This document shows, one piece after another, positions 13,001 to 27,068 of a stretch of 64,000 bases of DNA. The translations under genes were made by a program, and so were the position numbers. The notes beneath the pieces are model-generated. The model ran no database searches and was not told where the DNA came from. It worked only from the letters and a program-made list of their open reading frames with translations. Each line of letters opens with the position of its first letter. The first letter of the stretch is position 1. Source of the DNA: Acidobacteriota bacterium (lineage in GTDB: Bacteria > Acidobacteriota > Thermoanaerobaculia > Gp7-AA8); assembly GCA_019247495.1 (NCBI GenBank), contig JAFAOU010000132.1, positions 74,733 through 138,732 on the forward strand, read 5' to 3'.

Positions 13001-14530
13001 GCCGGTTAGCTCAAGGGTGCCGCTGAGCGTGGTCGTGCCGTTGATGAAATGCCCGTTGGGGAGTGCCACCGTGCCTGCGCCGCTGATCGTGATGCCGCTG
13101 AACGTGCCGCCCTTGCTGAACGTAAGAGTGCCGGTGTCAGCGTGAATGGTGGAACCGCTGTTCGAGTCAACCGGGATGCTGATGGTCGTGATGCCGCTTC
13201 CGGCGCTCTTCGTTATCGTGCCCGTCCCGTTGGTGATCTTGGAGGTGTCGCCGGGGGGGGCGAGGATCACCAGGTTTCGGTCGGTCCGGAGGTCGATCGT
13301 ACCGTTGTTGGTGACGGTGATGTTGTTGAAGAGACCGTACTGATTGGCGATGTTGATATCGTTGGTGTAGATGATCTGGCCGCCGCTGTTGACGGTGGTA
13401 TTGATAGCGATGTTGGAGTGGTTGTCGGTGCCGTGACACTGCACCACGCCGCCGCTGTTGATGGTCATTGTCCCACTGCCGACGAGCGAGCCGCCGTAAT
13501 GCTCCAGGGTCGCCGATACCGAAAAGGTCGACGAAGTCGACAGGTTGGCGTCCCTTAGGGCCACCGTTCCCGAGGTGAAGGTCATCGGCGTGCTGCTCGT
13601 CCAGGAATCGGGGGAGCTGCCACCCGGGCCGTCACCGATGTTGACCGTCGCGCCGGCGATAGAGAGCGTGCCGCCCCCATTGGCCGTCGGACTGCCGGCG
13701 ATGGTGAACGTACCGCCTGTGAGAGCGATGAACGCTCCGGAGGAGATCGAGTGCGTGCCGCTGATCGTGCCGCCGTTGTTGAGCGTCAGCGTGCCCGACT
13801 GCGACTGGATCGTGCCGCCGGCGGCGTTGTCGACGGTGAAATTGATGGCTGCGCTGCCGCTGCCGAAACTCTTCTTGATCACGCCGCCGCTGTTGTTGGT
13901 AAGAACGGGCGTTCCTCCGTCGGCGAGGACGTCGTGGTCGGTTTGAATGTCGATGACACCGCTGTTGACGATGACGGCGCCGCCGCAGCCAAAGTGCTGG
14001 CCCGCCATGATCGTGTTAAGGAAATTGATGGTGCCGGAGTTGTAGGCGTTGCGGAGCAGGCGGGAGGAGTTGACCGTACCCCAGAACTGCAACAGGCCGC
14101 CGATGGGGATGATAAGGGGTCCGGGGCCGTCGAGCGTGCCTCCGTAAATATCGACCGTGCCATAGATGAACAGGGTTCCGGCGCCCTGGAAGTTCGAGCT
14201 GTTGAGCAGCAGCGTGCCGCCAACATCGACCACGCTCGAAGAGGACACCGAAAGAAACCGGCCCGTCTCGATCAGTACGATCGCGGAACCGTGGACAAAG
14301 ATACTGTGGACGGTCGCATTCATGTCGATCCGGACCGTTCCGGTGCCGACACTGGGGATGTCGACGTCGTCGGAGATGCCGGGCACCGCGTTCCCGCTCC
14401 AGTTGAGCGGATTGCTCCAAAACTCAGTACCGCCGCCGGCGGTGTAAGTCACGGTCGCGCCGAAAGCGGCAGGGAAACAGGCAACCATCGCCAACACAAA
14501 GACGGCGCGCACAACGACGCGAATGTTCAT
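4043..14530 (-). CDS. Giant (3,495 aa) secreted repeat protein, adhesin-like beta-helix plus Ig-like modules
   Basis: Signal-like MNIRVVVRAVFVLAMVACFPAAFGA. About 2,000 aa of G/T/S/N-rich GTLTL.NGGT.SGG repeats, reminiscent of autotransporter-associated beta-strand repeats. These are followed by DUF11/CARDB-like modules (LAVSVSTPPSVANGSAFAYTVNLINQGGSDA), four Cys-framed ~90-aa modules and C-terminal beta-sandwich repeats. No C-terminal barrel or sorting tail recognised. Confidence 0.9.
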   Translation of the reverse strand: MNIRVVVRAVFVLAMVACFPAAFGATVTYTAGGGTEFWSNPLNWSGNAVPGISDDVDIPSVGTGTVRIDMNATVHSIFVHGSAIVLIETGRFLSVSSSSVVDVGGTLLLNSSNFQGAGTLFIYGTVDIYGGTLDGPGPLIIPIGGLLQFWGTVNSSRLLRNAYNSGTINFLNTIMAGQHFGCGGAVIVNSGVIDIQTDHDVLADGGTPVLTNNSGGVIKKSFGSGSAAINFTVDNAAGGTIQSQSGTLTLNNGGTISGTHSISSGAFIALTGGTFTIAGSPTANGGGTLSIAGATVNIGDGPGGSSPDSWTSSTPMTFTSGTVALRDANLSTSSTFSVSATLEHYGGSLVGSGTMTINSGGVVQCHGTDNHSNIAINTTVNSGGQIIYTNDINIANQYGLFNNITVTNNGTIDLRTDRNLVILAPPGDTSKITNGTGTITKSAGSGITTISIPVDSNSGSTIHADTGTLTFSKGGTFSGITISGAGTVALPNGHFINGTTTLSGTLELTGNAGVSGTLNAAGTLLLDNLVDVTWPNVNLTAASSKIDGAGTLRVSGNFNWTGGRVAGSGPRVMNSSSTPTITCSSICTLDTAALQLQASTTYNAGNNSFDLTNGASITIDPGKTLTITGDGDFGGVGGGSIINNGTIRKNGTTGISILDVPVTMSGTSTLTINTGTVMFTRGASVAAGTTLDAGAGTTLEVNGGAFLFNSGPVSTPGTGGFLVASGTLRVPTSVSIVLKNVTLQAPGIIDGGGTLILFGTTTWSGGTMGSATAPGGVTQINSGVDILNIAAGGAQTLTQSRELINNGTLNYAGTTSNALTMSANAKITNNNAFNLTADGNINLSAGALIDNNGTITKSGGTGTSTISPPLDNHSGATLSAPMGTIALSGGGIAAGAFSIIFPAILRLAGGTFTVASTATVTGTGTLDISGATLDAGSGVNLICPNVALQSGGTITGAGDVRVSGAFLWSAGTIAGSGARVLTSTSMSTISCSAGNCLLDGAALQLQATSNFTASSNPLVLSNGASLTIDPGKTLSVTNDGDFTDGGGAASSIISNGTIWKKTTSGTSTIGVPVTISGTSTIDLDSGTLQFGGGASVAAGATLDIAPSTTLEVTGGVFLINSGSVSMPGSGNFTVSGGALRVPTSITMTIPNVTIQGGGAVIDGGGTLILSGTTFWNGGTMGSASAPGGVTRIDPGNNMYIGGVVAKSLTQTRQLLNNGMMIYTNAGTGALTMSGGSRITNNNAFALSIDGNINLSGTAVIENFGVITKNAGTGTTTLFPTVENNSGGTVNAGIGTLDLAGGGTHSGGSFSAMTPGTLAFSAGTHSMTGGGSISGTGALSFNGATATVGIPINVATLSITSGTATLDATGSADAFTMSGGTLGGSGTLTLNNGGTWSGGTMSGSGTTINPATKTLGISAPVTLTSRTLQNGGTLNVSGDVTGSGTINNQGTLNANASIAIGAMLNNSGLVETSNTLTLSGGGTSNGGSFTVTAPGNLSFPSGTHTMSGGGSISGTGTLTFGGAAATVGIPVNVSTLNMNAGTAMLNGNGSAGAFTMTGGTLGGSGTFTLTNGGTWSGGTMSGSGTTINPATKSLGISAPVTLNSTLQNDGTLNVNGNVAGSGTIANNGTLNTGANVTISPAVNNGGQVATSNALALSGGGTHSGSFTVTSPGNLSFTGGTHSVIGGGSIGGTGTLTFSGATATVSVPVNVGTLSVSGGTATLNASSSAGAFTMNGGTLGGSGTLTLTNGGTWSGGTMSGSGITANPAAMTFSIPGSVTLTGRTLQNNGTLNVSGAVIAGSGTIDNIGAVNDTVGATISAPMNNSGQVTTSALLSLGGGGTHSGTFTASNAASVIDFNGGGHTISGPFAGAGKFRFSGGTAALNNAWSGKLIDVAGGSVALNTSGTLAPLSLSGGTLTGSGNVTVSGPSTWSGGTIAGSGALTFGAGATVTMPGTNAATLARPLLNQGTINFTASSSAMLIDGVAITNSGTFDIQSAQNILVTPGTPPFINNGTLRKSAGAGVMQFAAPLANTSLVQVSAGTLNFGGTYTQSAGTTEVLPGATLQTVTLSLNGGSLAGNGTIAGTVDNHATVAPGASPGTLTISGDYVQESDGVLNIQLGGTTAGTQYDRLLVSGNVTLGGTLNVTTINSFVPAAGNTFQILTFGDRPNSTTFALIDGVDFGSGAMLIPTYSATDLQLIDTSVQADLAVSVSTPPSVANGSAFAYTVNLINQGGSDATAVSFNATLPPNVTFNSASPAICSGAPNLVCTLGALTNLSSAVVVLNVTANGAGAAPITVFAGGHEFDPNSANNSASVSPSITVSSDLRIAVTGPPGTVPGSRAIYTITVTNSGPDVANNVAVSVAPSSGLTFNANSGACAGSFPCTISALSSGQSATINSAWDISPTATGSVQLSVNAASSTADPNSSNNSASATTLIGTCPAIVIEAPSELRTGARAEATATAFGGAVYHWSISNGTIDSGDGTNIITFTAGDEGPATLAVNVTSGGCTLNAISSIKVTPRQTCEGTAEPSVPPDGTTTAGAVVTFIWSTVDGASGYRLWLQQGDAPPQSLGRTLDGSVTKVIPPGPHHWYVETLFDGCASHESKHLALTILPATDCATDEAPQLSAPANATASTSASVAFSWEAVAKAIGYELWLVPAGGTPTLIHAAPETSYTATVPPGPLEWYVRAIFGGCAATESAHRTFTYTPPPECTTQSPLLIAPAEGERLTSPLSFEWRSVPGATSYELYVDGVLKVTTTSPHAGGIALPLDERRWRVRARLAEGCGALDSVESSVVVIPALPSCTPLEPPAVTAPAQISSGVPGRIQWTFVGGATDYVIEISRDAQFSPGVTTTSTVTTRQLPFTLTNDGSVPAARYIRVHAVDTKCIPPGKGPFSPVSVVSVLPPNGSEGVALMSDPTDVPYTLSIGAELAGLSFTAVPTTSWITVTPASGVVPPGGLTLHAFAHTAGLPPGASTGRVVVTTAGAAGKVGTRGDPSTSTSITLNNLNGTTTQANSTPPPDALTIPAVANVQNFLVKFQSDVCITNTSAQEIEYEISFIPSGESGITKGLSFNTTIASGATLALNSIVKTWLDGLTSSGTLQIRPLTQIDTPAPSAPATGLAPRTTFASSRTFSVATTGGTFGQYVPVVPYANYVSSGKVISLQQIAQSDKFRTNLGLVEGSGEEVTIQVSIFDEAGTKLAGFNEDLTGGQYSQLNEVLKKHGIIALDDGRIEVKVVKGDGKITAYASVIGNDINNDALLVPPATIGGAGHSKWVVPSVTDRTGGSDNWHTDVRIFNSGKDEAALTLVFYPANGGTETIRTTTLAPGEVRQLNSVLPSVFGISQDTGALHVSSAAPAQLVVTARTYNNTGKATYGEFIPAVTLEETVSAGSRPLQILQVEESETYHSHIGFAEVSGKEVTLEVSVFLADLKAPALKPLEVKLAPNQFLQIDSLLFSKFGLTDTRNARISVSVKSGEGRATAYLSLVDKKSGDPTYIPAQ
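8950..10550 (-). repeat. Three in-frame tandem repeats of ~531-537 nt (~177-179 aa) inside the giant gene
   Basis: Anchor GCTCATCGTGCCGCCGGACCAGGTGCC (WSGGTMSG) occurs at 9260 and 9791, with a slightly diverged copy at 10328. The GGGSISGTG unit starts fall near 9481, 10011 and 10548. Confidence 0.85.
10670..13135 (-). repeat. Two in-frame tandem copies of a ~1,233-nt (~411 aa) segment inside the giant gene
   Basis: Shadow ORFs starting at 10881 and 12114 are collinear paralogues (offset 1,233 nt). At protein level ...DGAALQLQA..NGAS.TIDPGKTL..T.DGDF... recurs. Confidence 0.8.
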
Positions 14531-14578: not shown

Positions 14579-17107
14579 TTACTTCAACCTGTAAATCATT
14601 CGGACGCTCACCGTTCTCCCGTTCTGCAACACGCTTGGCAGTGACTCCGAACCGACCACCCGGTACTGCTTGTCGAACACGTTGTCGGCCAGGAGCTGCA
14701 CCGACAGCTTCGGCAGGAGGTCGCGATACGTCAGGGAGACGGCGGTCGTCGCGTACGCGTCAGGGCCAGGGTTGTCGGGAAATGTGACGAAGGCAGTCCC
14801 GCGGCCGATCTTGCGAGGACCGGAGTAATGCATCCGGATTGCTGCCGTCAGTTGCCGCCACTCCTCATCGACGCCGGCGTTGATCTGGTCCGAGGCGATG
14901 TTCGGTACGCGCACGGCCTCGGTGGCAGCGTTCGGGTCGGCCGCATTCGGATCGATCGCAGAGGGGATGCGCTGCTCCGGCTGCACGTGCGTGTAATTCG
15001 CCCAGATCTGCGCGGCCGCGATCTTGTGACGCGCCGTCAACTCCAGACCGCGCACGAGGATCTCGTCGCGATTCTGGTTTACCACGCACGGATTGGGGCA
15101 GGTTTTCGAGGAGGGAAGCCGCCTGATGGCGATGACGCCCGTGTAGTGAGCCCGGTAGGCGGCGAGCTGTACGGACGTTCGCTCGTCAGCCTCCCATCCG
15201 GCGCTGACCTCGGTATTGCGCACTCGTTCCGGACGCAGGTTGACATTGACGGACGTCTGAAACGCGCCGAAGCGGGGGAAGACGACGCCGCCGAATTTTT
15301 CGGTGTCGGTCGGATCCTTGAACGCTTCCGAATAAACCGCTTTCAGGACCAGCTGGCGGCGGCCCGGCGAATAGATCACTCCAAGCCGCGGCGTGAAGAT
15401 CGAGCCGAAGCCGGACACTTCGGTCTTCGTACTGTCGTCGATCTTGTTGTAGCTGAGCCGTCCCGCCGCGACGAATCGAAGCGATGGCCGCGGCTTCCAC
15501 GCACCTTGTCCCCACAGTGCCGTATCGGTGTGGAAATTACGAGAGGACACCACGGCCTGGGAACCGCCGGAGAATTGGTCGTATTGGCTTTGGATCGTGC
15601 TTTTCGCGAATTCGACGCCAGTCACTCCGCTCAGCGTCTCCGAAGGCTGCCAGGCCATGCTGACCTCACTGCGAATCTGGGTCGAAAGAGCCCTGCCGTT
15701 GACGGGGAAAAGGATCCCGGCCGTGGGCGGGCAAACCGCCGCGCCGCAGGTGCGGGGAAGGAGATTGCTCGAATCGAGGATGCCGTTGGCATAGATGGCC
15801 ATCAAATCGAACTCCGACGAATTTGGATCGATGCTCGATTGCCTGTAGCGCGTGAAAATATTCAGCGTTCCCATCGACAGCCGGGACGAATAGCGGAGGT
15901 AGAGCGCGGTCTCCTCCGGCGTGTACGTCGTGTTGCCGCCATAGGTCTGCGCGCCGTATGCGGAAGCGACGCCTTCCTGGCTTCGCCACGACTGCAGGCC
16001 GAGCGTCACATTCGAGATCTGGACCTTGGCGTTGACGCCCCAGTTCTTCGCCCGGTCGTTGAATCCGAGGTGGTTCTGCTGGATGAAGGCTTGATCGGTC
16101 TGGCGAGCGAGTAGCAGTCCCGCGGCATTGACGCCCTTCAGCGTCGGGAGCTTCCCATAGTCCAGATTGCGATACGTGTAGTCCCAGTCGTCGAACTTCG
16201 AAAGATCGCGTTCCTTGCCGTCCTGAAAACGGCCCGCGATTGACCACGCCACGGTGCCGCCGCCGGTGATGCCGGCTGCGGTCATGTCAGCGGCTGTGCT
16301 GCCGTAGCCGCCGGTAGTCACGTGTCCGGCGAGACCGAACGGTTTGTTCTCGAGGAACGCCCCGGCGTCTCTGGTGATGATGCTGATCACGCCCGTGTAG
16401 GCGTTCGCGCCGTACATCGTCGAGGCCGGCCCGTAGACGACCTCGACACGGTCGATGTTCGTGAGCGGATATTGCCGCGACAGATATTGCGTGCCCTGAG
16501 TCAGGTCGTTCTGCTCGACGCCGTCGATCAGTAGCAGAAGCCGGCTGTTGAATGCGTCGTAGTAGCCGCGCTGATAGACATGTGAGTAGATGTCGCCGTT
16601 CGTGCGATTGACGTCGAAGCCGGGAAGATCGTGAAGAAGTTGCTCGAGATCGAGGTAGCCGCGCCGTTCGATCTCGTCGCCCGTGACGACGACGACGGTT
16701 GCCGGTGCTTCGCGCAAACTCTCCGCGCTTTTCGACACCGACGTGACCTGCGCCGACTGTTCCTCGCGCCGCACCTCGGCCAGGAGCGCGGCGAAACGCG
16801 GCGAGCCTGTGGCGTCGTCGAAGCCCGGTTCGAGCCGCAGAAGCTTCGAGACTTCTTTCTTTGCTTCGTCCGGCCGCTCGGCGTACATCAGCGCGCGGGC
16901 CAGCAGCGATTGCACTTGAATGGCGACGGTGCGCGAGAGCCTGGCGCGAGCGCAATCCTGGCGCAGCAGGCTCGCGGTCTGCGCGAACTCCCCGATGTCG
17001 TACGACTTCTGCGCCTCCGCGAATGCTGCCGTGCAGGCGTTCTGCGCCGATGAGACCTGCGCGGCGAGGAGCAGGACGACGGCGGCAAAAATCGAGACGC
17101 GTCTCAT
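14579..17107 (-). CDS. TonB-dependent-receptor-like outer-membrane barrel with helical/TPR-like N-terminal extension
   Basis: Signal peptide MRRVSIFAAVVLLLAAQVSSAQ. Plug motifs VVVVTGDEIERRGY, LLIDGVEQND and IDRVEVVYGPASTMYGANAYTGVISIITR, then a long beta-rich C-terminus. The ATG at 17107 overlaps the upstream stop as ATGA. Confidence 0.8.
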   Translation of the reverse strand: MRRVSIFAAVVLLLAAQVSSAQNACTAAFAEAQKSYDIGEFAQTASLLRQDCARARLSRTVAIQVQSLLARALMYAERPDEAKKEVSKLLRLEPGFDDATGSPRFAALLAEVRREEQSAQVTSVSKSAESLREAPATVVVVTGDEIERRGYLDLEQLLHDLPGFDVNRTNGDIYSHVYQRGYYDAFNSRLLLLIDGVEQNDLTQGTQYLSRQYPLTNIDRVEVVYGPASTMYGANAYTGVISIITRDAGAFLENKPFGLAGHVTTGGYGSTAADMTAAGITGGGTVAWSIAGRFQDGKERDLSKFDDWDYTYRNLDYGKLPTLKGVNAAGLLLARQTDQAFIQQNHLGFNDRAKNWGVNAKVQISNVTLGLQSWRSQEGVASAYGAQTYGGNTTYTPEETALYLRYSSRLSMGTLNIFTRYRQSSIDPNSSEFDLMAIYANGILDSSNLLPRTCGAAVCPPTAGILFPVNGRALSTQIRSEVSMAWQPSETLSGVTGVEFAKSTIQSQYDQFSGGSQAVVSSRNFHTDTALWGQGAWKPRPSLRFVAAGRLSYNKIDDSTKTEVSGFGSIFTPRLGVIYSPGRRQLVLKAVYSEAFKDPTDTEKFGGVVFPRFGAFQTSVNVNLRPERVRNTEVSAGWEADERTSVQLAAYRAHYTGVIAIRRLPSSKTCPNPCVVNQNRDEILVRGLELTARHKIAAAQIWANYTHVQPEQRIPSAIDPNAADPNAATEAVRVPNIASDQINAGVDEEWRQLTAAIRMHYSGPRKIGRGTAFVTFPDNPGPDAYATTAVSLTYRDLLPKLSVQLLADNVFDKQYRVVGSESLPSVLQNGRTVSVRMIYRLK

Positions 17108-20100
17108 TTCAACCCCAGTCCCGGATCGGCGCATGGCGTCATCTCGCGGTACGGCTCATCCGTGTAACGGCTCCAGATTTCTTCGGTCATCGGATCCACT
17201 TTCGTGCGGCATAGGTGTGCGGCGAGAACGTCGGTGCGGGCGTCGGAGATGCGGATGGCCGGCTCTTTGCCGCCCGAGATGACACCGCTGCCGTCGGCGT
17301 TGAACGCGACCGCCCAGATCCATCCCTCCTGCCGCGCGATGACCTCCGGCAGTGCTTCCGGCTTGTCGATGTGCCACAAACGGATCGTTCCGTCGGCGCT
17401 GCCGGACGCGAAGACGTCGCCGCGCGGATTGAAGCTGAGCGAGTTGACGCTGGCGGTGTGGCCGGAGAACGTAACCTCTCTCCCCTGCCCCAGCGGCGAG
17501 CCGACGATGCGGCCGTCCGCTCTGCCGCACAGCAGCGCCGTCCCATCGGGCTTGAAGGCGAGGCTGCGAATGTCCTTCGCGTCGTTGCAAACGCTGCGCG
17601 GCTGCGCCTCGGGCTGGGCAACATTCCACAGCAACGCGCCCGAAGGTTGGCTTGCAGCGAGGGCCTTGCCGTCGGGACTGAACGCCACCGCGCGGACGCC
17701 GGTTTTGTTGTCGCCGGTGCGCAGCCGCGCCGGCGCACCCGGATGCGCGGTGTCCCACAGCGTGACCGTGCCGTCGAGATTTCCGGCGGCGAGCAGAGAG
17801 CCCGAAGGCTGAAACGCCAGCGACATCACCGCGCCGGTGCCGGTGGTGACCTGCCGCGGCGCGCTGCCGTTGCGCACGTCCCAGACCGAAACGCTGCCGC
17901 CGCCGGTGCCCGCCGCGAGCAGGTTGCCGCGCAGCGCCAGTGCGCGCACAGGCCCGGGCAATTGCGCGACCACCTTCGGCGGCAGCCATTGATTGCGGTC
18001 GTAATCGTGGCGGGAAATCAGCCCGCTCTCGTCGCCCGCGAAGATGGTGCGGCCGTCGGGCGATGCGGCGATCGCGAGCGCGCCATTTTTCTGCGGCAGC
18101 TTCTGGACCGTTTGCGACGCGTGGCGGCCGCCGACGGCGTGCAGCGCGGCGAAAAGCTCCGGGTCGTCCGGATCGCCGCCGTTCTCCCGATTCAGGCGAT
18201 ACGCTTCGAGGACGAGAGGGATGTCGACGCCGTGTGCTTCGCGCGCGGTCAACGCCAGCGCGCGCGATGCGGAAAGATGGCGCAACGTCGTCGCTTTCTT
18301 GCGTTGCTCCTCGGCCGTTTCCTTTTGCGCGACCGCTTCGCCGCGGGCAATCTCCGTTTTCCTGGTCTGGTCGCGGGCCTCGCGCTCGTTGGCCAGTGCT
18401 TTCTGTTGCTCGCTTTCCGCGCGGAGGCGCTCGCGTTCCGCGAGCTCGCTCTGCCGCTGCGCGATCTCCGTCTGCGTTTCGGCGCGGCTGCGCTGTTGTC
18501 GGGCGACGTCGCGCTCACGGTCGGCCGCGAAGCGCGCCTCCTCCGCTCGCCCCTTCTCGGTCTCAGCGCGCCGTTTCTCGGTCTGCGCGCGTTTCTGCGC
18601 TGCATCAACGCGATCGAGCTCTTCCTCAGCCACGCGCTCCAGGCGCTGCGCCTCCGTCTTCTGGCGGAACGCGGTGTATCCGAGACCCATCGTCGCCAGG
18701 AAGGCGACCGACAACACGGCGATGACGACGCGCGCCTGGCGCAGCGCGCGCCGGCGCCGCTGTTCTCGCTGCTGGATCTTTTCGTCGCGCTCATTCCGGC
18801 TGGCGTCGAGAAAGGCCATGGCCCTCGCGAACGACGGGTCGTGGCGCTCCGCCCATTCCGGCGTCGGCTGTTCCTCTTCGCGCCACGAGAGTGCGAACTG
18901 CAGCTCCGGATCGCGCCACAGCGCCGCTTTCCCCTCCTCATGCCGCTGCGCCGCCTCGGAGAGTTTGAGATAGAGCTGGGCGGCCTGCGCCTCGTCGTCG
19001 GCCCACTGCGACAGCCGTTCCCAGTTGCGCATCAGGCTTTCGTGCGAGATGTCGAGGATGGAGTTGTCGTTGAGCGGGACGTCCGCCGGCGGCATCAGGA
19101 ACGAACGCCCCTGCCGCCGGAAGCTGGCCGTGACGCGGGTGATCTCTTCCAGGCTGGCCTGCGTGAGCGCGCGGATCTCGCTGACCGGCGCCGGGCGCCT
19201 AACGCCGCGGGGGTCCGAGGCCTTGTCGGTCAGCGCTTTGAACATCTTCTCGGCAATGAATCGCCCGCGCTCGTCGAGCTCCCCGAAGGCCTCCTCGGCG
19301 TGACGCGACAACGCGTCGCGCAACGTGCCGATCTCTTCGTACTGCGAAAGATCGAGCCCTTCGCCGCGGTAGTGGAAAGACCGCCAGCGCTCCCAGGTCC
19401 GCATCAGCGCGTGCTGGAGGATGGGAAGCTGATCGGGATCGTCGCCGACGTCATTCAACAACCGCGACACCAGACGCGGCGCGATCGTCGCTCCGCCCAC
19501 AGCGACCGGTCCGGTGATGGCGAACCGCAGCTCCTCGCGCGTCATCCGCGGGACGAGATAGATCCCTTCGTTGACCACTTCCGGCAGCGTGCCGAACTCC
19601 ATGCAGTCGCCGATGAAGTCGGAGCGCATGGTGATGGCGACGTAGATGGGGATTTCGGTTTCGCGCGCGGCCAGCAGAAGTTTGACGAAGGCCGCCGCTT
19701 CGTCCCCGCCATCGGGGCCGCGGCTGAATTTGTAGCGGAAGATCTCCTCGAATTGGTCGACCAGTAAGAGGACGTTGTCCGCGGCGCCGATCTGCGACTG
19801 GCGGACGCACTCGACCAGGCCGAGGCGGCTGGCGCGCAGCGTCGTTTCAAAAAGAGCGCGGGTCAGCTTCTCGTCGGCGCCGCCGCCGAGAGCGTCGGAA
19901 GCAGTGAGCGCTGCTGCGAGATTGCCGATCGGATTTTCGCCCGGCCTCATCGTCGCCACGCGCCACCGGGAGCCCGCGCGCGTCATCGCCCCGCCGTGAA
20001 GGCTGGGGATCAGACCTGAGCGCACCAGCGACGACTTGCCACTTCCGGAGCGGCCGAGAACGGAGAGGAATCGCGTGCTGCGCAGCCTTCGCAGGAGCTC

Positions 20101-20241
20101 GTCGGTCTGCCGCTCGCGTCCGAAGAAGAGATAGTCCTCGTCGGGTTCGAACGGGCGCAATCCAGGAAATGGATTGACCTCCGCCGTCGGATCGAGAGCG
20201 ATCACGATGCCGGAGCTGCTGCTTTTGCGATCGCTGCTCAT
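17104..20241 (-). CDS. STAND-class P-loop NTPase with single TM helix, long coiled coil and C-terminal WD40 propeller
   Basis: NPFPGLRPFEPDEDYLFFGRERQTDELLRRL, Walker A GRSGSGKSS and Walker B LLLVDQFEEIF. RRRRALRQAR precedes the TM VVIAVLSVAFLATMGLGYTAF. Then an E/R/Q/A-rich coiled coil and WD40 repeats (GHTASVNSLSFNPRGDVFASGSADGTIRLWHI). The start ATG at 20241 overlaps the TIR stop (ATGA). Confidence 0.85.
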   Translation of the reverse strand: MSSDRKSSSSGIVIALDPTAEVNPFPGLRPFEPDEDYLFFGRERQTDELLRRLRSTRFLSVLGRSGSGKSSLVRSGLIPSLHGGAMTRAGSRWRVATMRPGENPIGNLAAALTASDALGGGADEKLTRALFETTLRASRLGLVECVRQSQIGAADNVLLLVDQFEEIFRYKFSRGPDGGDEAAAFVKLLLAARETEIPIYVAITMRSDFIGDCMEFGTLPEVVNEGIYLVPRMTREELRFAITGPVAVGGATIAPRLVSRLLNDVGDDPDQLPILQHALMRTWERWRSFHYRGEGLDLSQYEEIGTLRDALSRHAEEAFGELDERGRFIAEKMFKALTDKASDPRGVRRPAPVSEIRALTQASLEEITRVTASFRRQGRSFLMPPADVPLNDNSILDISHESLMRNWERLSQWADDEAQAAQLYLKLSEAAQRHEEGKAALWRDPELQFALSWREEEQPTPEWAERHDPSFARAMAFLDASRNERDEKIQQREQRRRRALRQARVVIAVLSVAFLATMGLGYTAFRQKTEAQRLERVAEEELDRVDAAQKRAQTEKRRAETEKGRAEEARFAADRERDVARQQRSRAETQTEIAQRQSELAERERLRAESEQQKALANEREARDQTRKTEIARGEAVAQKETAEEQRKKATTLRHLSASRALALTAREAHGVDIPLVLEAYRLNRENGGDPDDPELFAALHAVGGRHASQTVQKLPQKNGALAIAASPDGRTIFAGDESGLISRHDYDRNQWLPPKVVAQLPGPVRALALRGNLLAAGTGGGSVSVWDVRNGSAPRQVTTGTGAVMSLAFQPSGSLLAAGNLDGTVTLWDTAHPGAPARLRTGDNKTGVRAVAFSPDGKALAASQPSGALLWNVAQPEAQPRSVCNDAKDIRSLAFKPDGTALLCGRADGRIVGSPLGQGREVTFSGHTASVNSLSFNPRGDVFASGSADGTIRLWHIDKPEALPEVIARQEGWIWAVAFNADGSGVISGGKEPAIRISDARTDVLAAHLCRTKVDPMTEEIWSRYTDEPYREMTPCADPGLGLK

Positions 20242-21737
20242 GATCCCGATTCCCGCCCCTTCGCGATCGCGTCCAGCAGCGGCGCGAGCACCGATGGATC
20301 GAACCCGCCGGCCGGCTCGCGGATCAGCATCGCCTCGTGTGTGCGAAAGCGATCTTTCTGCGCCGTGGCCGGTGCGCCGGCGTAAATGCCGCGCGCGTAC
20401 AACGGCCGCTCGCGCCCGAGCGCCGCGCTCTTTTGCAGCTCGCGCAACTTCCGCCGCAGCCACAGCTCATCGCCGGCGCCGTAGTAGAGAAGGATCACGT
20501 CCGCCGAGCGGAGGTTTTCCTCGTGCTCCAGCCGCGCCTGCGCTTCATCGTCGTCGAAGACCGGAAGGACGACTTCGAAGCCTTCGCTGAACAGGTAATC
20601 TTCGAGAGGCTGCGCCGCGGTGACGTCCTGCTGATCGCAGAGGAGGTACAGCCGCGGATGCTCCTGCTCCGCGGGCACAGCAGCCGCCTTCACAACGACG
20701 GCCGGCGGCGGCGTGAGCTTTCGGTAAATGAATGCCTTCAGCTCCTCGATCGGAACTTCCAGCAACTCCGCCGTGGCGTGTACCAACGGATTGGTCTGCA
20801 GACTGTGGACGAACGTGCGCTGCCGCTCGTCTTCGATCTGCACTCCCGGCCGAAGCCAGATGATGCTCGACAGCGCGCTGCCCGGCGCGGCCTCCGAGGC
20901 CAGCACCTGTTGCCGTTCCACGATGGAGACCCGCGCGCCCTCGGGCACGATGCCGTAGTTCAGTCCGACCAGATGGATCGAGACGTTGCTTCGCTCGAGC
21001 TGTTCGCGAACGATGGCATCCAGCTCCGGACCGACGAGCGGCAGCGCGCGATCCGGGAGGACTTCGTAGCCGTTGCGGACCAGGTCGCGCTTGATGGCCT
21101 CGCGCTCCTCGCGCAACTCGAAGCTCGTCTCCGCGAGAAAGAGCGTTCCCTTCGACGCGCCAGGCGCGGACGCGCCAGGCACGACGCTGGCCGTCTCGCT
21201 TTCAATCAGGTCGAGAAGCTGCGCGATGTCGAAGGCGAGGTCGTCGAGCTTCGTCAGGAAGGTGCGCTCCTTCCCGAAATCCTGCGACAGCTCCCGCGGC
21301 CGGCCGGCCTCGTCATAAACGAAGAATTCATAGCCGAGCATCGGCTGTACTTCCTCGGGAAGCCGCTCCTGGCTGACCGGCGTCTTCACCACTTTGAAGA
21401 TGCGGGCCTTATCGCCGATGCGCGTGCCGCCGGAGCGCTCTGCGAGGCGGGAGAACTCTTTCAACTCCCGGTTGCACCACTCCGACTGCACGTAACGCGG
21501 CGAGAGCACCGACACCAGCGCGGCAATCCGCGGAAGGCGCTCGAGGATGGTGTCGGCAAAGATGTCGTTGCCCTGCAACTTCTGATCGCGCCAGATCTTC
21601 GGCTTCTGTCCCCGCACCTGTCCGACACGGATCTCCAGGAGCCTATGCAGCTCCGAAATCCAGCCCTGCTCACCAGGGACTAACGCTTCGTTGTCCAGAT
21701 GAGCATAGCTAATCAGGAAGTCGTGCTCGAATTGCAT
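20238..21737 (-). CDS. TIR-domain protein with two further TIR-like/flavodoxin-like modules
   Basis: N-terminal HDFLISYAHLDNE...ALVSVLSPRYVQSEWCNRELKEF, the classic bacterial TIR pattern including the catalytic-Glu context. Downstream modules are LFLAETSFELREEREAIKRDLVRNGYEVL... and LYLLCDQQDVTAAQPLEDYLFSEGFEVVLPVFDDD... Confidence 0.85.
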   Translation of the reverse strand: MQFEHDFLISYAHLDNEALVPGEQGWISELHRLLEIRVGQVRGQKPKIWRDQKLQGNDIFADTILERLPRIAALVSVLSPRYVQSEWCNRELKEFSRLAERSGGTRIGDKARIFKVVKTPVSQERLPEEVQPMLGYEFFVYDEAGRPRELSQDFGKERTFLTKLDDLAFDIAQLLDLIESETASVVPGASAPGASKGTLFLAETSFELREEREAIKRDLVRNGYEVLPDRALPLVGPELDAIVREQLERSNVSIHLVGLNYGIVPEGARVSIVERQQVLASEAAPGSALSSIIWLRPGVQIEDERQRTFVHSLQTNPLVHATAELLEVPIEELKAFIYRKLTPPPAVVVKAAAVPAEQEHPRLYLLCDQQDVTAAQPLEDYLFSEGFEVVLPVFDDDEAQARLEHEENLRSADVILLYYGAGDELWLRRKLRELQKSAALGRERPLYARGIYAGAPATAQKDRFRTHEAMLIREPAGGFDPSVLAPLLDAIAKGRESGS

Positions 21738-21877: not shown

Positions 21878-22690
21878 TCAAATCGGATCGCGATACCGGC
21901 GCAGGCGTACTGCGCCAGCGACGCATACCGCCGCGATGGCCAAGCCGATCCATAACCCGGGCATGGTCAGGAACTCTAGCGGGTGGGAGGGCCAAAGCAT
22001 CGTCATGCTCCCCTTTGCGGGGTCAGATCCCATTCCGCCACTGATGCGCGAGCCGAGCATGGTGGCGAAACGCGTGGTGTTTAAGGCGATCTTCTCGAGG
22101 ACGCCGATCGCGGCCAGCGGCAGGAACGCCCACAGAAACGGCAGGCGCTTGGCCCACGCTGAGACCAGCAGTAGCCAGCCGAAAATCGGCGCGTAGTAGA
22201 GGGAGTGGACGGTGATCAGGTGATAGAGCATCCCCGATGACATCCGCAGCCACGGCAGGCTCCATAACGCGGCGGCGCTCTGACCCTTCATCGCCAGAAA
22301 AGCGCTGGCCGCCAGCAGCATGATCAGCTGCGTCGCGATGGCGAGCACGAACGTGACCACCGGCAGGATGACCATCGGCACAGCCATCTTCGACAGCACC
22401 GCCGTCCAATCGGAGACCGGCATCGATTTCCAGAAGAGAACACTGCGGTCGCGGCGCTCGCCATAAAGAGCGTCGAGACAATAGAAGATGGCCACGATCA
22501 AGGTCGTACCCATCAGCACTCCGGCCACGAGCTCGTCATGCGCGGCCAGCTTGCCCGGCTGCAGGTTGTGCCTCACGGCACCGAACGAGGCGAGTGCGAT
22601 CACCCCCGCCACGGTCAGCGGCGCGAGGTAGATGGAACGGTTCTCCCACAACTCGCGACGCACTTGCCAGATCATCGATCGTGAATTCAT
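21878..22690 (-). CDS. ABC-2-type transporter permease
   Basis: 270-aa polytopic membrane ORF. Its start overlaps the ATPase stop by 4 nt (22687-22690). Confidence 0.7.
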   Translation of the reverse strand: MNSRSMIWQVRRELWENRSIYLAPLTVAGVIALASFGAVRHNLQPGKLAAHDELVAGVLMGTTLIVAIFYCLDALYGERRDRSVLFWKSMPVSDWTAVLSKMAVPMVILPVVTFVLAIATQLIMLLAASAFLAMKGQSAAALWSLPWLRMSSGMLYHLITVHSLYYAPIFGWLLLVSAWAKRLPFLWAFLPLAAIGVLEKIALNTTRFATMLGSRISGGMGSDPAKGSMTMLWPSHPLEFLTMPGLWIGLAIAAVCVAGAVRLRRYRDPI

Positions 22691-23559
22691 GGCGTCGCTC
22701 CCTCCCGCTCCATCACCGCCACGAACACATCGGCAATGCTCGGCGTGCGCACCTCGCCCAGCGCGGCGAGTTGCTCGCGATCGGCGCCCCCAGCCTGAAG
22801 ATCGACCAACAGGATGCTGCGCCCGAGCATTTGCCGCTCGGAGATCGGCCGCAGGGCTCGGGCGGCGGCAAGACTGTCCGGACGAACCACCACCTGGAGA
22901 TAGCGAGACTCGAACTGCTCCATGCTGGAACCGAAGACAATGCGGCCACGATTGATGAACACGACATCGGTGAGCACGTCCTGGATCTCTTCGACCTGGT
23001 GCGTGGTCACCAGAATGGTGCGGCTCTGATCGAAGTAATCGTTCAGCAGCGAGTCGTAGAATTGCTTGCGGTAGAGGATATCGAGTCCGAGCGTCGGTTC
23101 GTCCAGCACCAGCAGCCTGGCATCAACAGCCATGACCAGCGCCAAGTGAAGCTGGGTCACCATCCCTTTGGACAACTCCCGCACTCTGGCGTTTCGCTTG
23201 ATCGCCGTCCTGCCCAGGAACTCCTCGGCTTTAGCGCGATCGAATCGCGGATGCACGCCGCCGGCGTAGTCGAGCAGTTGAGAAACGCGGATCCAGCGCG
23301 GCAGCACGGCAACGTCGGCGATGTAGGCGACGTCGCGCATCAGTTGTGCGCGCGCGGTCCACGGGTCGCGCCCCAGCACAGCGAGCTGCCCTTCGTATTG
23401 CGTGAGACCGAGAATCGTATTGAGCGCCGTGGTTTTGCCGGCGCCGTTCGGACCGATCAGGCCGACGATGCGCCCTTCCTCGACGCGCAGATCGACGCCG
23501 TCGAGCGCCATCGTGGTCCCGAATGCTTTTCGAATGCCCCGCGCCTCGATGACCGCCAT
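22687..23559 (-). CDS. ABC transporter ATP-binding protein
   Basis: Walker A GPNGAGKTT, signature LSKGMVTQ and Walker B LLVLDEPTLGLD. The internal ATG at 23559 (MAVIEARGIRKAFG) shares 1 nt with the GntR stop (TGATG). Confidence 0.9.
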   Translation of the reverse strand: MAVIEARGIRKAFGTTMALDGVDLRVEEGRIVGLIGPNGAGKTTALNTILGLTQYEGQLAVLGRDPWTARAQLMRDVAYIADVAVLPRWIRVSQLLDYAGGVHPRFDRAKAEEFLGRTAIKRNARVRELSKGMVTQLHLALVMAVDARLLVLDEPTLGLDILYRKQFYDSLLNDYFDQSRTILVTTHQVEEIQDVLTDVVFINRGRIVFGSSMEQFESRYLQVVVRPDSLAAARALRPISERQMLGRSILLVDLQAGGADREQLAALGEVRTPSIADVFVAVMEREGATP

Positions 23560-23921
23560 CAGCGCTTCTCCCGGCGATGCTTGAGGAGCTCCTTGGCGGT
23601 CAGCCCCAGCCGCTGAATCCTCTCCTGAATCCTCGGCCACTCCTCTTCCAGAAACTTCTGCCGTTCGCTGCGCAAAAGAAGTTCGCGCGCGCCGGCGTTG
23701 ACGAACATTCCGCGGCCGCGCCGCATCTCGACCAGGTTCTCGTCGACGAGCTCCTGGTAGGCTCTCAGAACTGTGAGGTGATTGAGCCGGTAGTCAGTGG
23801 CCACGGTACGGACCGATGGGATGGCATCGCCTTCCTTGAGCAACCCTTCCAGGATCATGGCCACGATGCGGCCCCGAAGCTGGCGATAGATTGGTTGTGT
23901 GTCGTCCCACTCGCGGTCCAT
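23559..23921 (-). CDS. GntR-family (YtrA-like, short) transcriptional regulator
   Basis: 120 aa. Winged-helix signature PIYRQLRGRIVAMILEGLLKEGDAIPSVRTVATDYRLNHLTVLRAYQELVDENLVEMRRGRGMFV, with a short C-terminal tail as in YtrA-type members. Confidence 0.85.
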   Translation of the reverse strand: MDREWDDTQPIYRQLRGRIVAMILEGLLKEGDAIPSVRTVATDYRLNHLTVLRAYQELVDENLVEMRRGRGMFVNAGARELLLRSERQKFLEEEWPRIQERIQRLGLTAKELLKHRREKR

Positions 23922-23930
23922 TCGGTAGCG

Positions 23931-25040
23931 TCATTTCATTGTAAGCGGCAGGGGTCCATCGCCGTTGAAAAAAGGCGCGAGGTAAATCCCGTGCCGCGCG
24001 GCGATCATCTCGATTTCCTCGACGAGCTTCGGCGTGATTGCACCCCTTCCGCGGGAGAAGGACTCGAACCTTCCTTCCAGCGTCAGAGCGATGCCTTCCA
24101 GCAGACATCCGTGAGCGACATCGGGGAACGGATGATGGTTCAGGATTCCACGAAGATCGGGGTCGAACGTCAATCCGCCCGTGATCTGTCCAAGCCCTCC
24201 GAAAAAAACGGTGGCCCGGGAGGTCTCTGCATCGGGGGAGAGGTTCTTGGGGTAGCCGGCATCGCAAACGAGGGCGTCGGCCGCGATGTTGTCCAGCAAA
24301 AGGGATGGCGACGGGAGACTGGCCGCGCAGATCGCGAGATCGGCTTGCTCGGAGAATTGCGCGAGGTCCGTTCCGATCTCGATCTCGACGCCTTCGCCTT
24401 CGAGTTCTACCGCCAGCCGGCGAAGCCGCTCGACATTGCGCGCGACGAGTTGCACACGTCTCACCTTCCCTGCCAGGCAACGGACGCAGCCCGAACCGAC
24501 GTCTCCGGTTGCCCCGACCACGAGCAGCGTCGATTGCCAAAGGTTCCGCCCCTGCAGCGCGCACATCTTCTCGATGCCCTGAACGATGAACGCGACCGTC
24601 AGCGTATTGCCGGTGGTGAAGACCGTGGCGCGTCCGGGCGGGAGCTGATCGAACTTCCCCTCCAAGAGAATGGAGCTGAATCCGCCGAGGCTGACGATGC
24701 GGGCTCCTGCCTTGATTGCGTACGCCGCGGCAGCACGAACCCGCGTCAGGTTCTCCTGCACACAGCCGGCATCCAAGCGGTCAGGAGGAATGAACGAGTC
24801 GATGTAAAGGCCATGCGCCTCGGCAGCAGCAATCGACTTCACCGCCACGCGGCAGACGGCACGGGGCGGAATCCACGGAAGGATGTCCCTGATCTCATCG
24901 TCCGGCAGCGGCGTCTGCTCCGGTCCGCGCAGAGCCGAGAAGACGTCCGCCGCTGCGCTCCAACTCTCCGGATGTCCGACCAGGGCGAAATCGACTTGCG
25001 GCGCAGCCGATGGCGCTATACCGGCAACTGTGCAATCCAT
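23931..25040 (-). CDS. Acyl-ACP reductase (cyanobacterial AAR)-like NAD(P)H-dependent reductase
   Basis: Collinear with remembered cyanobacterial AAR: VGHPESW (cf. IGHLTS), SLGGFSSILLEG, FTTGNTLT, the VVGATGDVGS Rossmann loop, CDAGYPKN, HGCLLEGIALTLEGRF (catalytic Cys context) and ITPKLVEEIEMIAARHG. Start set at ATG 25040. Confidence 0.75.
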   Translation of the reverse strand: MDCTVAGIAPSAAPQVDFALVGHPESWSAAADVFSALRGPEQTPLPDDEIRDILPWIPPRAVCRVAVKSIAAAEAHGLYIDSFIPPDRLDAGCVQENLTRVRAAAAYAIKAGARIVSLGGFSSILLEGKFDQLPPGRATVFTTGNTLTVAFIVQGIEKMCALQGRNLWQSTLLVVGATGDVGSGCVRCLAGKVRRVQLVARNVERLRRLAVELEGEGVEIEIGTDLAQFSEQADLAICAASLPSPSLLLDNIAADALVCDAGYPKNLSPDAETSRATVFFGGLGQITGGLTFDPDLRGILNHHPFPDVAHGCLLEGIALTLEGRFESFSRGRGAITPKLVEEIEMIAARHGIYLAPFFNGDGPLPLTMK

Positions 25041-25807
25041 GCGAGTGTGACCTCTCCGGGCAAGCCCAACGCGTCGAGCGTCTTTATGTACTGCTGCAGC
25101 GATGCTCCGCGCAGCAGCGCGGCGCTGAGGTTGACTTCGAACAACGACGGCTTCACGCAACTGGACTGGCACACTTCGCAATGTCCGTCCTTGCACTCTT
25201 TCGCCAGCATCGCTGCCAGAGTGGTCATCACCTCGAGATGCAGCCGGTGCAACTTATCGTCGAAGCGCTCTGGGTCGGCGTCGCGCTCCGCTTTGAGGAT
25301 GGCCATGGCGTGATCGGCGTGTTCCTGCTCGTCCGCCGCAATGGCACCGAAGACCTTGCCCAGACTCCCCGGCGCGACGATCGCGACGCGCGCGTAGCTG
25401 GCCAGTGCAAACGATTCCAGCATGATTTCCTGGACGATGAGGCAGCCGATAATGTCGCGCTCTGCGACGCAGCGCAGGAACGCCTCGCGGAGACGCTTCC
25501 AATGTCTTCCGTCGACATTGCTGACGACGTCCACTCCGATGTTGCGTCCCGCGGCCGCGAAGGCCACGGCATGAGACCGCTCGATCGCCGAATGCTCCCA
25601 GGCCTGCCCGGCCTCTTCGGGATCGTCACAGATCCCGGCCAGCGCTTCGTAGTTCATCGCGGCGACGAGCTCCCCCGTCACCGCCTGGGCCAGCACATCC
25701 TGCCAAATCGGAGAGTCAGAGAAGTCGCTCTCCGTCAGTGGCTGCATCTCCATCAAGGCGTCCATCGATTCTCCGTCCATCACGTGTGATATAGGTATAT
25801 ATAGCAC
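25016..25807 (-). CDS. Ferritin-like di-iron protein homologous to aldehyde-deformylating oxygenase (ADO)
   Basis: All six di-iron ligand contexts are present in ADO order: TGELVA, AIERSH, IVQEIMLESFALASY, AADEQEHADH. The match is collinear to the C-terminus. The start is uncertain (several Met between 25807 and 25747). Confidence 0.75.
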   Translation of the reverse strand: MLYIPISHVMDGESMDALMEMQPLTESDFSDSPIWQDVLAQAVTGELVAAMNYEALAGICDDPEEAGQAWEHSAIERSHAVAFAAAGRNIGVDVVSNVDGRHWKRLREAFLRCVAERDIIGCLIVQEIMLESFALASYARVAIVAPGSLGKVFGAIAADEQEHADHAMAILKAERDADPERFDDKLHRLHLEVMTTLAAMLAKECKDGHCEVCQSSCVKPSLFEVNLSAALLRGASLQQYIKTLDALGLPGEVTLAWIAQLPV

Positions 25808-25854
25808 CGCAGCACGTGACTGTCAAGAGGGATCGGCGGAAACAGAACGTTTAT

Positions 25855-25925: not shown

Positions 25926-25970
25926 ACAAGGTTTTTCACAGCCGGACGCACCGCGAGCAGCTCGCGCACG

Positions 25971-26159
25971 CTGCGTTTCGCCTCGCGCACACTGTGTATC
26001 GGCCTGTACACGCTGTGTATCGGCCAGTGCGCGTTGCGTATCGGCCTGTGCACGCTGTGTATTGGCCTGTGCGCGTTGTGTATCGCCCCGTGCACGCTGT
26101 GTATCGGCCTGTGCGCGTTGTGCATTGCCCTGTGCGCGCTGTGTATCGGCCTGTGCGCG
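25971..26159. repeat. Tandem array of 21-bp direct repeats (8 clear units plus 1 degenerate), consensus CTGTGTATCGGCCTGTGCRCG
   Basis: Units start at 25992, 26013, 26034, 26055, 26076, 26097, 26118 and 26139, with a degenerate unit at 25971. There are no spacers. The array lies in the 700-bp divergent intergenic region. Confidence 0.9.
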
Positions 26160-26213: not shown

Positions 26214-26510
26214 GTCGCCTCGTGAGCTGGCTAGCCGGCTGACGACTATGGGAGCTGGCGCTCGTGAGAGCCCCTCGCTCCCGGCGGCCAACGGGTGAGA
26301 AGGTGCGCTGGATAGTGCGGTTCTCATCCCTGCGGGAGTCGAGCGTTGCTCCTCCTGCCGTGGGCTCTCGAAGTGTGCGCACTTCGGGAAAACATCAACC
26401 GGAAGAGCGGCGCGTAGTCGTCTCCTCCAGCCGGTGGCCGCCTGCACTCGTGCACAGGGTGCTCGTTGGTTCCCTCCGGCCTGAACCGATGGTCTAAGGA
26501 GGACCAGACA

Positions 26511-27068
26511 ATGTCTACGAATCACGAAGTCACGAACACGGCCGCCGCCACGGATGTCCCGTCGACGGTGCCGCTACTCACCCCCGAGGCAGTCGTGGAG
26601 GGATTGCGCGCCATGCGTGCGCAGATCGGCGAGGTCACGCCGTTGACGAGCGCGCAACGCATAACGTTGCGCAGCCGTACGCGGACGTCCAATCCGGTTC
26701 TGCAAGCGTCGATCAACGTCATCGGAGCGCTCGACAACGTCTCGCAGGCGGTCGGGCAACCGGCCGACGACGTGCGTCAGATGATCGAGGATGCGAACCG
26801 CTGGACGGCAGTGGAGGACGAATTCCGGGCCATGTTGAGCGGCATCGCCGGAGCGAACCTCATCCGCCGCCAGCGCATCGCACTGATCGCTTCGCAAGCG
26901 TTTTCGATCGGCTCGCAGCTGGCGCGCGACCCGGCGCACGCCGTCCTCGTGCCGCACGTGCAGGAGATCCGTCGTCTGAAGAGCTTCAAGCGCCGCAAGA
27001 AAACGGCGCAGACTCCCGGCACGCCGGCGCCCCCGCCCGTGACGCCGCCGAAGGCAGTAGAACCCTAA
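26511..27068 (+). CDS. Hypothetical protein (185 aa)
   Basis: ATG at 26511 preceded by AAGGAGG (26496-26502). No family recognised. Basic, Pro-rich tail. Confidence 0.55.
   Translation: MSTNHEVTNTAAATDVPSTVPLLTPEAVVEGLRAMRAQIGEVTPLTSAQRITLRSRTRTSNPVLQASINVIGALDNVSQAVGQPADDVRQMIEDANRWTAVEDEFRAMLSGIAGANLIRRQRIALIASQAFSIGSQLARDPAHAVLVPHVQEIRRLKSFKRRKKTAQTPGTPAPPPVTPPKAVEP

Follow-up and report, generated by a model that had tools for sequence, protein, structure and literature searches.

An acyl-ACP reductase- and aldehyde-deformylating oxygenase-like gene pair in a putative repressor-controlled exporter operon of Acidobacteriota

The gene pair and its predicted products

We analyzed a stretch of 64,000 nucleotides (64 kb; hereafter the window) of contig JAFAOU010000132.1 from an Acidobacteriota bacterium (assembly GCA_019247495.1), and all coordinates below are positions within this window. 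Two overlapping genes on its minus strand have as predicted products homologues of cyanobacterial aldehyde-deformylating oxygenase (ADO) and acyl-ACP reductase (AAR). The pair, and a cysteine-rich loop in the ADO-like protein, are located as follows.

25016..25765, minus strand: ADO-like ferritin-fold di-iron oxygenase gene (249 aa; start from gene calls and ribosome-binding site)
23931..25040, minus strand: AAR-like acyl-thioester reductase gene (369 aa; ATG start)
25151..25195, minus strand: codons of the Cys-rich loop CKDGHCEVCQSSCVK, pattern C-x4-C-x2-C-x3-C-x-K (from the translation)

A first-pass annotation of this DNA had proposed an overlapping ado-aar pair in this order, and the list of open reading frames places both frames on the minus strand where they had been reported. 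The overlap is real, but in the gene calls the start of the AAR-like gene reaches only 25 nt past the ADO-like stop, not 181 nt, the AAR-like ATG being at 25040. The ADO-like frame was likewise present, but its proposed GTG start at 25807 is replaced here by the ATG at 25765. We consider this ATG the most likely start because a GGAG ribosome-binding site (25771-25774) precedes it with a 5-nt spacer, the public gene calls give 249 aa, close homologues are all 249-252 aa long, and a candidate promoter and operator occupy 25786-25826. The two genes are translationally coupled. All of the motifs that had been quoted for the ADO-like protein (TGELVA, AIERSH, LESFALASY and DEQEHADH) and for the AAR-like protein (VVGATGDVGS, FTTGNT, GYPKN and HGCLLEG) were found in the translations.

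Pfam and NCBIfam profile searches confirmed the proposed ADO/AAR affinity. The ADO-like protein passes the Pfam model PF11266 (Ald_deCOase) at 55.7 bits, with a gathering cut-off of 28, and its PDB sequence matches were cyanobacterial ADO in 20 cases out of 20 (best E 2e-14). An AlphaFold2 model of the protein, built on 29 diverse family members, had a mean pLDDT of 92. When the PDB was searched with this model using Foldseek, the top 26 matches were again all cyanobacterial ADO (TM 0.78/0.87, rmsd 2.2-2.8 Å). The next matches, from E 2e-3, were much weaker and comprised PaaA, Dps-like proteins and the Kitasatospora 'protein 60' (6D9F). A Pfam Rubrerythrin match over the helical core was weak and below its cut-off (20.7 bits). 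The similarity of the ADO-like protein to cyanobacterial ADO is far beyond chance, and its identification as an ADO homologue is upheld.

Alignment with cyanobacterial ADO also bears out the earlier claim that all six di-iron ligands are kept. These ligands, in the order E / ExxH / E / ExxH, are E32, E62/H65, E117 and E146/H149 in the numbering of the 249-aa protein (E31, E61/H64, E116 and E145/H148 in a 248-aa numbering), and they vary little or not at all within the family. The positions aligned with F87 (Trp here) and Y122 of Synechococcus elongatus ADO are conserved as well. The family has further invariant residues of its own, namely H57, H151, H175 and C45.

The AAR-like protein was also correctly recognized as a homologue. 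It matches NCBIfam TIGR04058 at E 1e-40 and aligns over its full length with S. elongatus AAR (6JZU_A, E 1.6e-30), residues 18-352 of 369 being collinear with chain residues 2-334 through all three domains. In S. elongatus AAR the functional features are a GATGDIG loop, a cysteine, C294, that forms the acyl-thioester, and a pocket of R189, R193 and R314 for the 2'-phosphate of NADPH (PMC7089970). Each has a counterpart here. The nucleotide loop reads GATGDVG, the arginine triad is represented by an RN..R motif and by GRG, and C294 aligns with Cys312 in HGCLLE (codon 24105-24107), which is invariant across branches. A weaker match was obtained to the N-terminal domain of PigE (NF053554, 71.6 bits; PDB 4PPM, E 9.5e-8), and by sequence the AAR-like protein belongs to the same reductase superfamily as that domain. 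Judged from their alignments, both members of the pair are real homologues with intact catalytic residues.

The cysteine-rich loop of the ADO-like protein is 18 residues long and is missing from cyanobacterial ADO. The predicted model places it between helices 164-185 and 204-210. Its cysteines are C191, C196, C199 and C203 in the numbering of the 249-aa protein. The C-x4-C-x2-C-x3-C-x-K pattern occurs in 80/80 acidobacterial sequences with the four cysteines 100% conserved, and the loop is found in all non-cyanobacterial branches, with a deletion at that place in the cyanobacterial-type ADO representatives. We speculate, by analogy with the rubredoxin site of rubrerythrin, that this Cys4 loop could be a metal-binding site that relays electrons.

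Distribution, selection and the wider family

With one genome scanned for each GTDB species, a relative was detected in at least 321 genomes, and the locus counts given here refer to the best 80 of these 321. The ADO-like and AAR-like genes are adjacent in 80/80 of the loci. Except for four oddly labelled bins, the best 80 are all metagenome-assembled genomes (MAGs) of Acidobacteriota, from Thermoanaerobaculia, Terriglobales, Bryobacterales and Acidoferrales. Close homologues, at 73-91% identity, came only from metagenomes and from MAGs labelled Thermoanaerobaculia, Terriglobales or Acidobacteria. Using a Terriglobia-type query, more than 2100 clusters (90% identity) were retrieved at E <= 1e-30, most of them metagenomic; some homologue clusters have hundreds of member sequences. 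No cultured isolate was present among the 80 genomes and the 240 protein clusters listed, all of which are MAGs or metagenome contigs.

The acidobacterial pair sits on contigs of 200 kb to megabase scale. The GC content of the locus in the window is 0.625, equal to that of its flanks. Against six relatives, dN/dS (NG86) was 0.07-0.28 across the five genes of the operon described below and 0.13-0.23 for the ADO/AAR pair, indicating purifying selection. Since composition matches the flanks, dN/dS is this low and the pair is spread through Acidobacteriota, it is a resident, selected acidobacterial trait and not a recent import. The first-pass annotation had judged the genome not to be cyanobacterial, and the contig passed this taxonomy check, its closest relatives being Thermoanaerobaculia/Terriglobia MAGs. 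It had also raised the possibility of an unrecognised non-cyanobacterial branch, a suggestion borne out by the constant adjacency, the omega of 0.13-0.23, the matching composition and an identity to cyanobacterial ADO of only ~22%.

Among 1.84 billion 50%-identity representatives, searched exhaustively with HMMER, no more than 165 clusters reached E <= 1e-3. Representatives of the cyanobacterial type score 150-199 bits against TIGR04059 and match our query only at E ~1e-9. A rough neighbour-joining tree resolved five groups, with cyanobacterial-type ADO separate from groups I-IV. Group I holds the acidobacterial clade and relatives at 36-57% identity, group II is a group at 30% identity, group III is marked by a C-terminal Cys-Cys, and group IV is small. 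Some members of group III are fused to an ArsM-like methyltransferase; in P0171, P0204 and P0207 (561-605 aa) an ArsM-like arsenite/S-adenosylmethionine (SAM) methyltransferase domain is joined to an ADO-like domain ending in Cys-Cys, and P0171 scores 281.7 bits against NCBIfam PRK11873.

In members of groups I and III, on DNA of 39-73% GC, an AAR-like gene lies directly downstream of the ADO-like gene. Because this adjacency holds in both groups at 27-47% identity, we take the ADO-AAR pair to be an old two-gene unit that has so far been studied only in its cyanobacterial version. More distant branches, in other phyla, have other conserved partners, a 350-aa GNAT-like protein and a DUF3419 protein, and once also a fatty-acid desaturase (L093). 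The betaine-lipid enzyme BtaA has this DUF3419 domain, which makes the second partner BtaA-like and SAM-dependent. These cassettes (L088 1312-4184; L092 7853-11993; L093 9001-13500; L090 3-1294) may represent an undescribed lipid pathway. None of these partner genes turned up in the window or at any of the 80 loci from Acidobacteriota. Genes for a 'fatty aldehyde decarbonylase' on Flavobacteriaceae contigs have been read as alkane potential (PMC10176705). From the neighbours with type IX secretion system tails in L092, a locus of a Bacteroidota-like sister branch, we believe that the flavobacterial genes probably correspond to that branch.

Operon partners and regulatory elements

Downstream of the pair, on the same strand, three further genes complete a putative five-gene operon, and two candidate regulatory elements lie ahead of it.

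25798..25826, minus strand: sigma-70-like promoter, TTGACA 25821-25826, 17-nt spacer, TATATA 25798-25803 (read by eye)
25786..25807, minus strand: 22-bp inverted repeat GTGCTATA-N6-TATATCAC, presumed GntR operator, overlapping the -10 box
23559..23921, minus strand: gene for a GntR-family, YtrA/PmtR-like putative repressor (120 aa; Pfam GntR, 51.8 bits)
22687..23559, minus strand: ATP-binding cassette (ABC) transporter ATPase gene (290 aa; Pfam ABC_tran, 77.7 bits), overlapping the GntR gene by 1 nt
21878..22690, minus strand: membrane protein gene, presumed ABC-2-type permease (270 aa), overlapping the ATPase gene by 4 nt

The five genes, ADO-AAR-GntR-ABC ATPase-permease, all overlap or abut. 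The GntR domain covers residues 12-74 of the 120-aa protein, which has no large effector domain and no aminotransferase-like domain. Its score against NCBIfam PmtR (53.6 bits) is below the cut-off, as is that of the ATPase against PmtA, although NCBIfam places the ATPase as DrrA/PmtA-like. The 270-aa protein had no Pfam match; hydropathy gives about six hydrophobic segments, and in related loci its gene always follows that of the ATPase. The GntR-ABC-permease trio is found within 8 kb and on the same strand in 57 of the 80 loci, downstream of the pair as in the window in 6 and upstream in 51 from Terriglobia. In 5 further loci it is partly visible at contig ends, which brings the linked loci to 57-62 of 80.

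The Terriglobia-type loci carry additional genes (e.g. L037 5045-5617 and L016 5576-6292). A secreted protein of 190 aa with no Pfam match is encoded just upstream of GntR in 43 of them, and a DUF4386 membrane protein gene is found beside the module in 29. In ~10-13 Terriglobia loci a gene for an extracytoplasmic function (ECF) sigma factor and one for a small membrane protein lie downstream of AAR. NCBIfam returned nothing for the 190-aa, GNAT-like or DUF3419 partner proteins.

Although a strict sigma-70 consensus scan called no promoter upstream of ADO, the TTGACA/TTGCC -35 element and an AT-rich -10 element are conserved in 7 sister loci. The palindrome is found a single time in the 64-kb window, where 0 copies would be expected, and it turns up again in 33 loci. 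In sister Thermoanaerobaculia-type loci it has the same place upstream of ADO. In Terriglobia-type loci it precedes the GntR-ABC genes, and also the 190-aa gene where that is present, and wherever an exact match was found there was exactly one per locus. Operators of the GntR family are in general GT...AC palindromes, and the operon's own GntR repressor presumably binds this one.

A different element was found in relatives lacking the trio. There ADO is preceded by AAAAATATGGAAC-N16-CGTA, which we take to resemble ECF-sigma promoters. Of 18 loci without the trio, 10 had the pattern GGAAC-N15-17-CGTA ahead of ADO, compared with 0 of 62 loci with it. The ECF-sigma-type promoter of these pump-less relatives suggests that the pair serves to adapt the envelope or membrane, and a function connected with the envelope is indicated by either form of regulation.

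No riboswitch or other known RNA was found upstream of ADO in the window, apart from one sub-threshold chance hairpin, and five related loci had nothing relevant. In one Terriglobales locus an Acido-Lenti-1 sRNA motif (RF01687; 37.5 bits, gathering score 37) lies at L027 4658-4713, with ~240 nt separating it from the operator downstream, at the module's head. In the window, a 21-bp tandem repeat of ~9 copies with the consensus CTGTGTATCGGCCTGTGCGCG occupies 25966-26159, 200-400 nt upstream of the ADO start and between the ADO promoter and a divergent gene (26466-27068).

Other systems in the window appear unrelated to the pair. The genome had been described as bearing a type VI secretion system (T6SS), and a complete T6SS cluster is indeed present at 47.9-63.9 kb (47908-63858), with genes for a ClpV-like ATPase, TssG, TssF, a gp25-like protein, Hcp, TssC/VipB, TssB/VipA, ImpA, an IcmF-like protein and VasE; a VgrG gene lies near it at 36957-39014. 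We rejected a functional link, as the cluster is 22 kb away from the pair and missing from related loci. At 17104-21737 (minus strand), a gene for a 499-aa TIR_2 and DUF4062 protein overlaps the start of a gene for a 1045-aa nSTAND1 NTPase with WD40 repeats. These two look like a STAND/TIR signalling or defence pair. A link to these downstream genes was also rejected, since only the closest relatives (L001 and L003) retain them and L005 and later loci do not. An open reading frame of 3495 aa at 4043-14530 (minus strand), whose sole Pfam match is to DUF11 repeats, probably encodes a giant surface protein.

Interpretation, alternatives and comparison with known systems

We consider it very probable that the pair makes a fatty aldehyde and then processes it oxidatively. 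Judging from the conserved catalytic residues, Cys312 of the AAR-like protein would take a long-chain acyl group from acyl-ACP or acyl-CoA as a thioester, which NADPH would reduce to the fatty aldehyde. For the second step we lean, without great confidence, towards a hydrocarbon product, and towards a non-cyanobacterial AAR/ADO two-enzyme branch, here in Acidobacteriota and in a repressor-controlled exporter operon. Fold, ligands and pairing suggest that the di-iron centre of the ADO-like protein, with O2 and external electrons, would most probably cleave the C1-C2 bond to give a Cn-1 alkane or alkene and formate. More speculatively, the Cys4 loop might hold an extra metal centre in the path of these electrons. 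The five genes would be transcribed from the one sigma-70-type promoter when a signal releases the repressor. Because the -10 box lies inside the repressor palindrome of a shared operon, lipid synthesis would be switched on together with the ABC-2 pump, which may export the product or protect the envelope or membrane from it. In pump-less relatives the pair, behind its ECF-sigma-type promoter, may serve envelope or membrane adaptation.

Several results weigh against a hydrocarbon-producing, pump-coupled pathway. Against the NCBIfam equivalog models, the ADO-like protein scores 58 bits with TIGR04059 (cut-off 222.65) and the AAR-like protein 139.7 bits with TIGR04058 (cut-off 449.7), so that by these curated same-function thresholds neither protein is a member of the cyanobacterial equivalog family. 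In the Foldseek matches the ADO-like protein has ~22% identity to cyanobacterial ADO. An ADO fold does not fix the chemistry either, because BioE, an enzyme with this fold, reportedly acts by cleaving acyl thioesters rather than by deformylating aldehydes (PMC12704756). The linkage to GNAT-like and BtaA-like genes suggests a lipid more elaborate than a plain hydrocarbon, at least in the sister branches. The trio is missing despite full flanks in 12 of the 80 loci, and no gene for an electron donor was recognized in the operon. Finally, YtrA-type GntR/ABC operons are of common occurrence, and adjacency could reflect shared regulation with a pump that does not carry the product.

The first-pass annotation had itself allowed for a different substrate or product. 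As far as the sequences indicate, this caveat is justified, because the equivalog cut-offs are missed, the Cys4 loop is extra, and sister branches occur with GNAT-like and BtaA-like genes. The same pair may accordingly perform another second step, such as hydroxylation, desaturation, formation of an n-1 alcohol, aldehyde or acid, or an internal C-C cleavage like that of BioE, yielding an exported amphiphilic lipid or signal. We regard such chemistry as possible, if doubtful. The wide margin by which the cut-offs are missed would fit it, as would the invariant residues and Cys4 loop that are the family's own and missing from cyanobacterial ADO, the precedent of BioE, and the operonic association of sister branches with a GNAT-like acyltransferase, a DUF3419/BtaA-like SAM enzyme and a fatty-acid desaturase. 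An exporter would also seem to suit an amphiphile better than an alkane that partitions into the membrane. Yet the ADO-like protein retains the di-iron ligands and the aromatic residues at the positions of F87 and Y122, it is strictly paired with an aldehyde-forming reductase just as in cyanobacteria, and the GNAT-like and BtaA-like partners do not occur in the window or in the acidobacterial loci.

A second alternative concerns the neighbours and is compatible with either chemistry. The GntR-ABC-permease genes could be an independent stress module of the YtrA type that is a mere neighbour, with the pair acting on membrane lipids without export. At least 12 loci with full flanks do without the module, Terriglobia-type loci have DUF4386 and secreted 190-aa genes between or beside the two parts with gaps of up to 3 kb, and in the 51 loci with the module upstream there is no operator directly upstream of ADO. 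This is nevertheless rather unlikely in our view. The linkage has been preserved across acidobacterial classes in two different gene orders, the operator of the window type overlaps ADO's own promoter ahead of five genes that overlap or abut, and the two promoter types are mutually exclusive, the ECF type occurring only where the module is missing.

It is very improbable that the pair belongs to a secondary metabolism like that of PigE, in which the reductase would free a non-fatty (e.g. beta-keto) aldehyde from a carrier protein, to be transaminated as happens in prodigiosin MAP biosynthesis and tailored by the ferritin-like protein. The match to the PigE N-terminal domain is consistent with such a role, and in one close relative (L003/L004) a class-III aminotransferase gene (Aminotran_3) stands directly upstream of ADO. 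The AAR match is far stronger, however (139.7 versus 71.6 bits), and the AAR-like protein is a stand-alone protein of 369 aa with no fused or neighbouring aminotransferase in the window. When the L003 aminotransferase was used in tblastn, only L003/L004 had a directly adjacent match; that in L015 was weak (29% identity), on the opposite strand and ~5 kb downstream. No conserved polyketide synthase, nonribosomal peptide synthetase or carrier-protein genes lie nearby. Recent horizontal acquisition from a cyanobacterium, which the first-pass annotation had considered, or assembly contamination shares with our results a family resemblance and is otherwise excluded with near certainty by the GC match to the flanks, the ~22% ADO identity, the separate branch of cyanobacterial-type sequences (E ~1e-9) and the presence of the pair in 80/80 loci on large acidobacterial contigs.

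Returning to the hydrocarbon-forming branch, we advance a wider version of it tentatively and with less conviction. Soil Acidobacteriota would make hydrocarbons or an aldehyde-derived lipid by way of an exporter- or ECF-coupled envelope response, with the Cys4 loop as a redox site. The loop-bearing, AAR-paired form, which occurs in several phyla, would be the general one, and cyanobacterial ADO would be derived from it by loss of the loop.

ADO has been described as unique to cyanobacteria (PMC3903477), and models of biological hydrocarbon cycling rest on a cyanobacteria-only ADO (PMC10176705). Our literature search found no paper linking ADO or AAR to Acidobacteria and none on the ADO/AAR branch found here, the one related mention being that of the Flavobacteriaceae genes (PMC10176705). 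The existence of the genes is recorded publicly, automatic annotation of public MAGs naming the ADO-like genes 'long-chain fatty aldehyde decarbonylase' or 'ferritin-like', but they are unstudied. The titles of PDB entries 5UX2, 5UXI, 5UWZ and 6D9F indicate a survey of ferritin-like proteins for ADO activity, reportedly that of Mak et al. in Biochemistry in 2020; the non-cyanobacterial example in that survey matches the fold of our protein only weakly. What is new here is the phylum, the conserved Cys4 loop, and the regulatory and exporter partners; the two-enzyme logic is already known.

Genes of this pathway are thus not confined to cyanobacteria but occur in genomes of hundreds of uncultured acidobacterial species and in thousands of soil metagenome clusters, and Acidobacteriota are among the most abundant soil bacteria. 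If the enzymes are active, alkanes or related lipids in soils and peat could have an additional bacterial origin, with consequences for the interpretation of n-alkane biomarkers and of the cryptic hydrocarbon cycle. Active enzymes would also offer biofuel engineering, where slow cyanobacterial ADO is a bottleneck, a divergent set of ADOs, perhaps with a built-in redox site. They would further provide a first regulatory context, a YtrA-type repressor with a pump or an ECF promoter, that hints at a purpose of hydrocarbons in non-photosynthetic cells.

The nearest known systems are the cyanobacterial enzymes. Cyanobacterial ADO (TIGR04059, PF11266, EC 4.1.99.5; PDB 4RC5 and 2OC5) has the same ferritin-like fold and six ligands, and its gene likewise lies just upstream of an AAR-type gene. 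The cyanobacterial enzyme turns a fatty aldehyde, with O2 and four reducing electrons, into a Cn-1 alkane or alkene and formate. The ADO-like protein differs in the 18-residue Cys4 loop, in the invariant H57, H151, H175 and C45, and in its phylum and operon partners. Cyanobacterial AAR (TIGR04058, EC 1.2.1.80; PDB 6JZQ/6JZU), which uses NADPH to reduce long-chain acyl-ACP or acyl-CoA to the aldehyde, is collinear with the AAR-like protein and has the same GATGD(I/V)G loop, Arg triad and catalytic Cys, but the AAR-like protein is ~28 residues longer, including an N-terminal extension of ~17 residues. PigE, of the prodigiosin MAP pathway, is fused to a class-III aminotransferase and has no ferritin-like oxygenase partner, whereas the AAR-like protein stands alone. 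BioE shares the ADO-like fold, and a long-chain acyl substrate has been reported for it (PMC12704756). It acts on an acyl thioester without an AAR partner, and its gene lies by bioF/D/B/A with a MocR-type GntR regulator, BioL; the regulator in the window is instead a 120-aa protein of the YtrA type, and no bio genes were found among the conserved neighbour families of the pair.

The regulatory half of the operon resembles YtrA-type systems such as PmtR-PmtABCD of S. aureus and ytr of B. subtilis in its short GntR protein, its ABC ATPase with a membrane protein, and a GT...AC-type palindrome at its own promoter. It differs in adding two lipid-pathway enzymes, and its scores are below the PmtR and PmtA cut-offs. 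With rubrerythrin the likeness is one of analogy only, both combining a di-iron ferritin-like centre and a Cys4 motif in one polypeptide. In rubrerythrin the Cys4 motif forms a C-terminal rubredoxin domain, whereas here it is an internal loop and a putative metal site.

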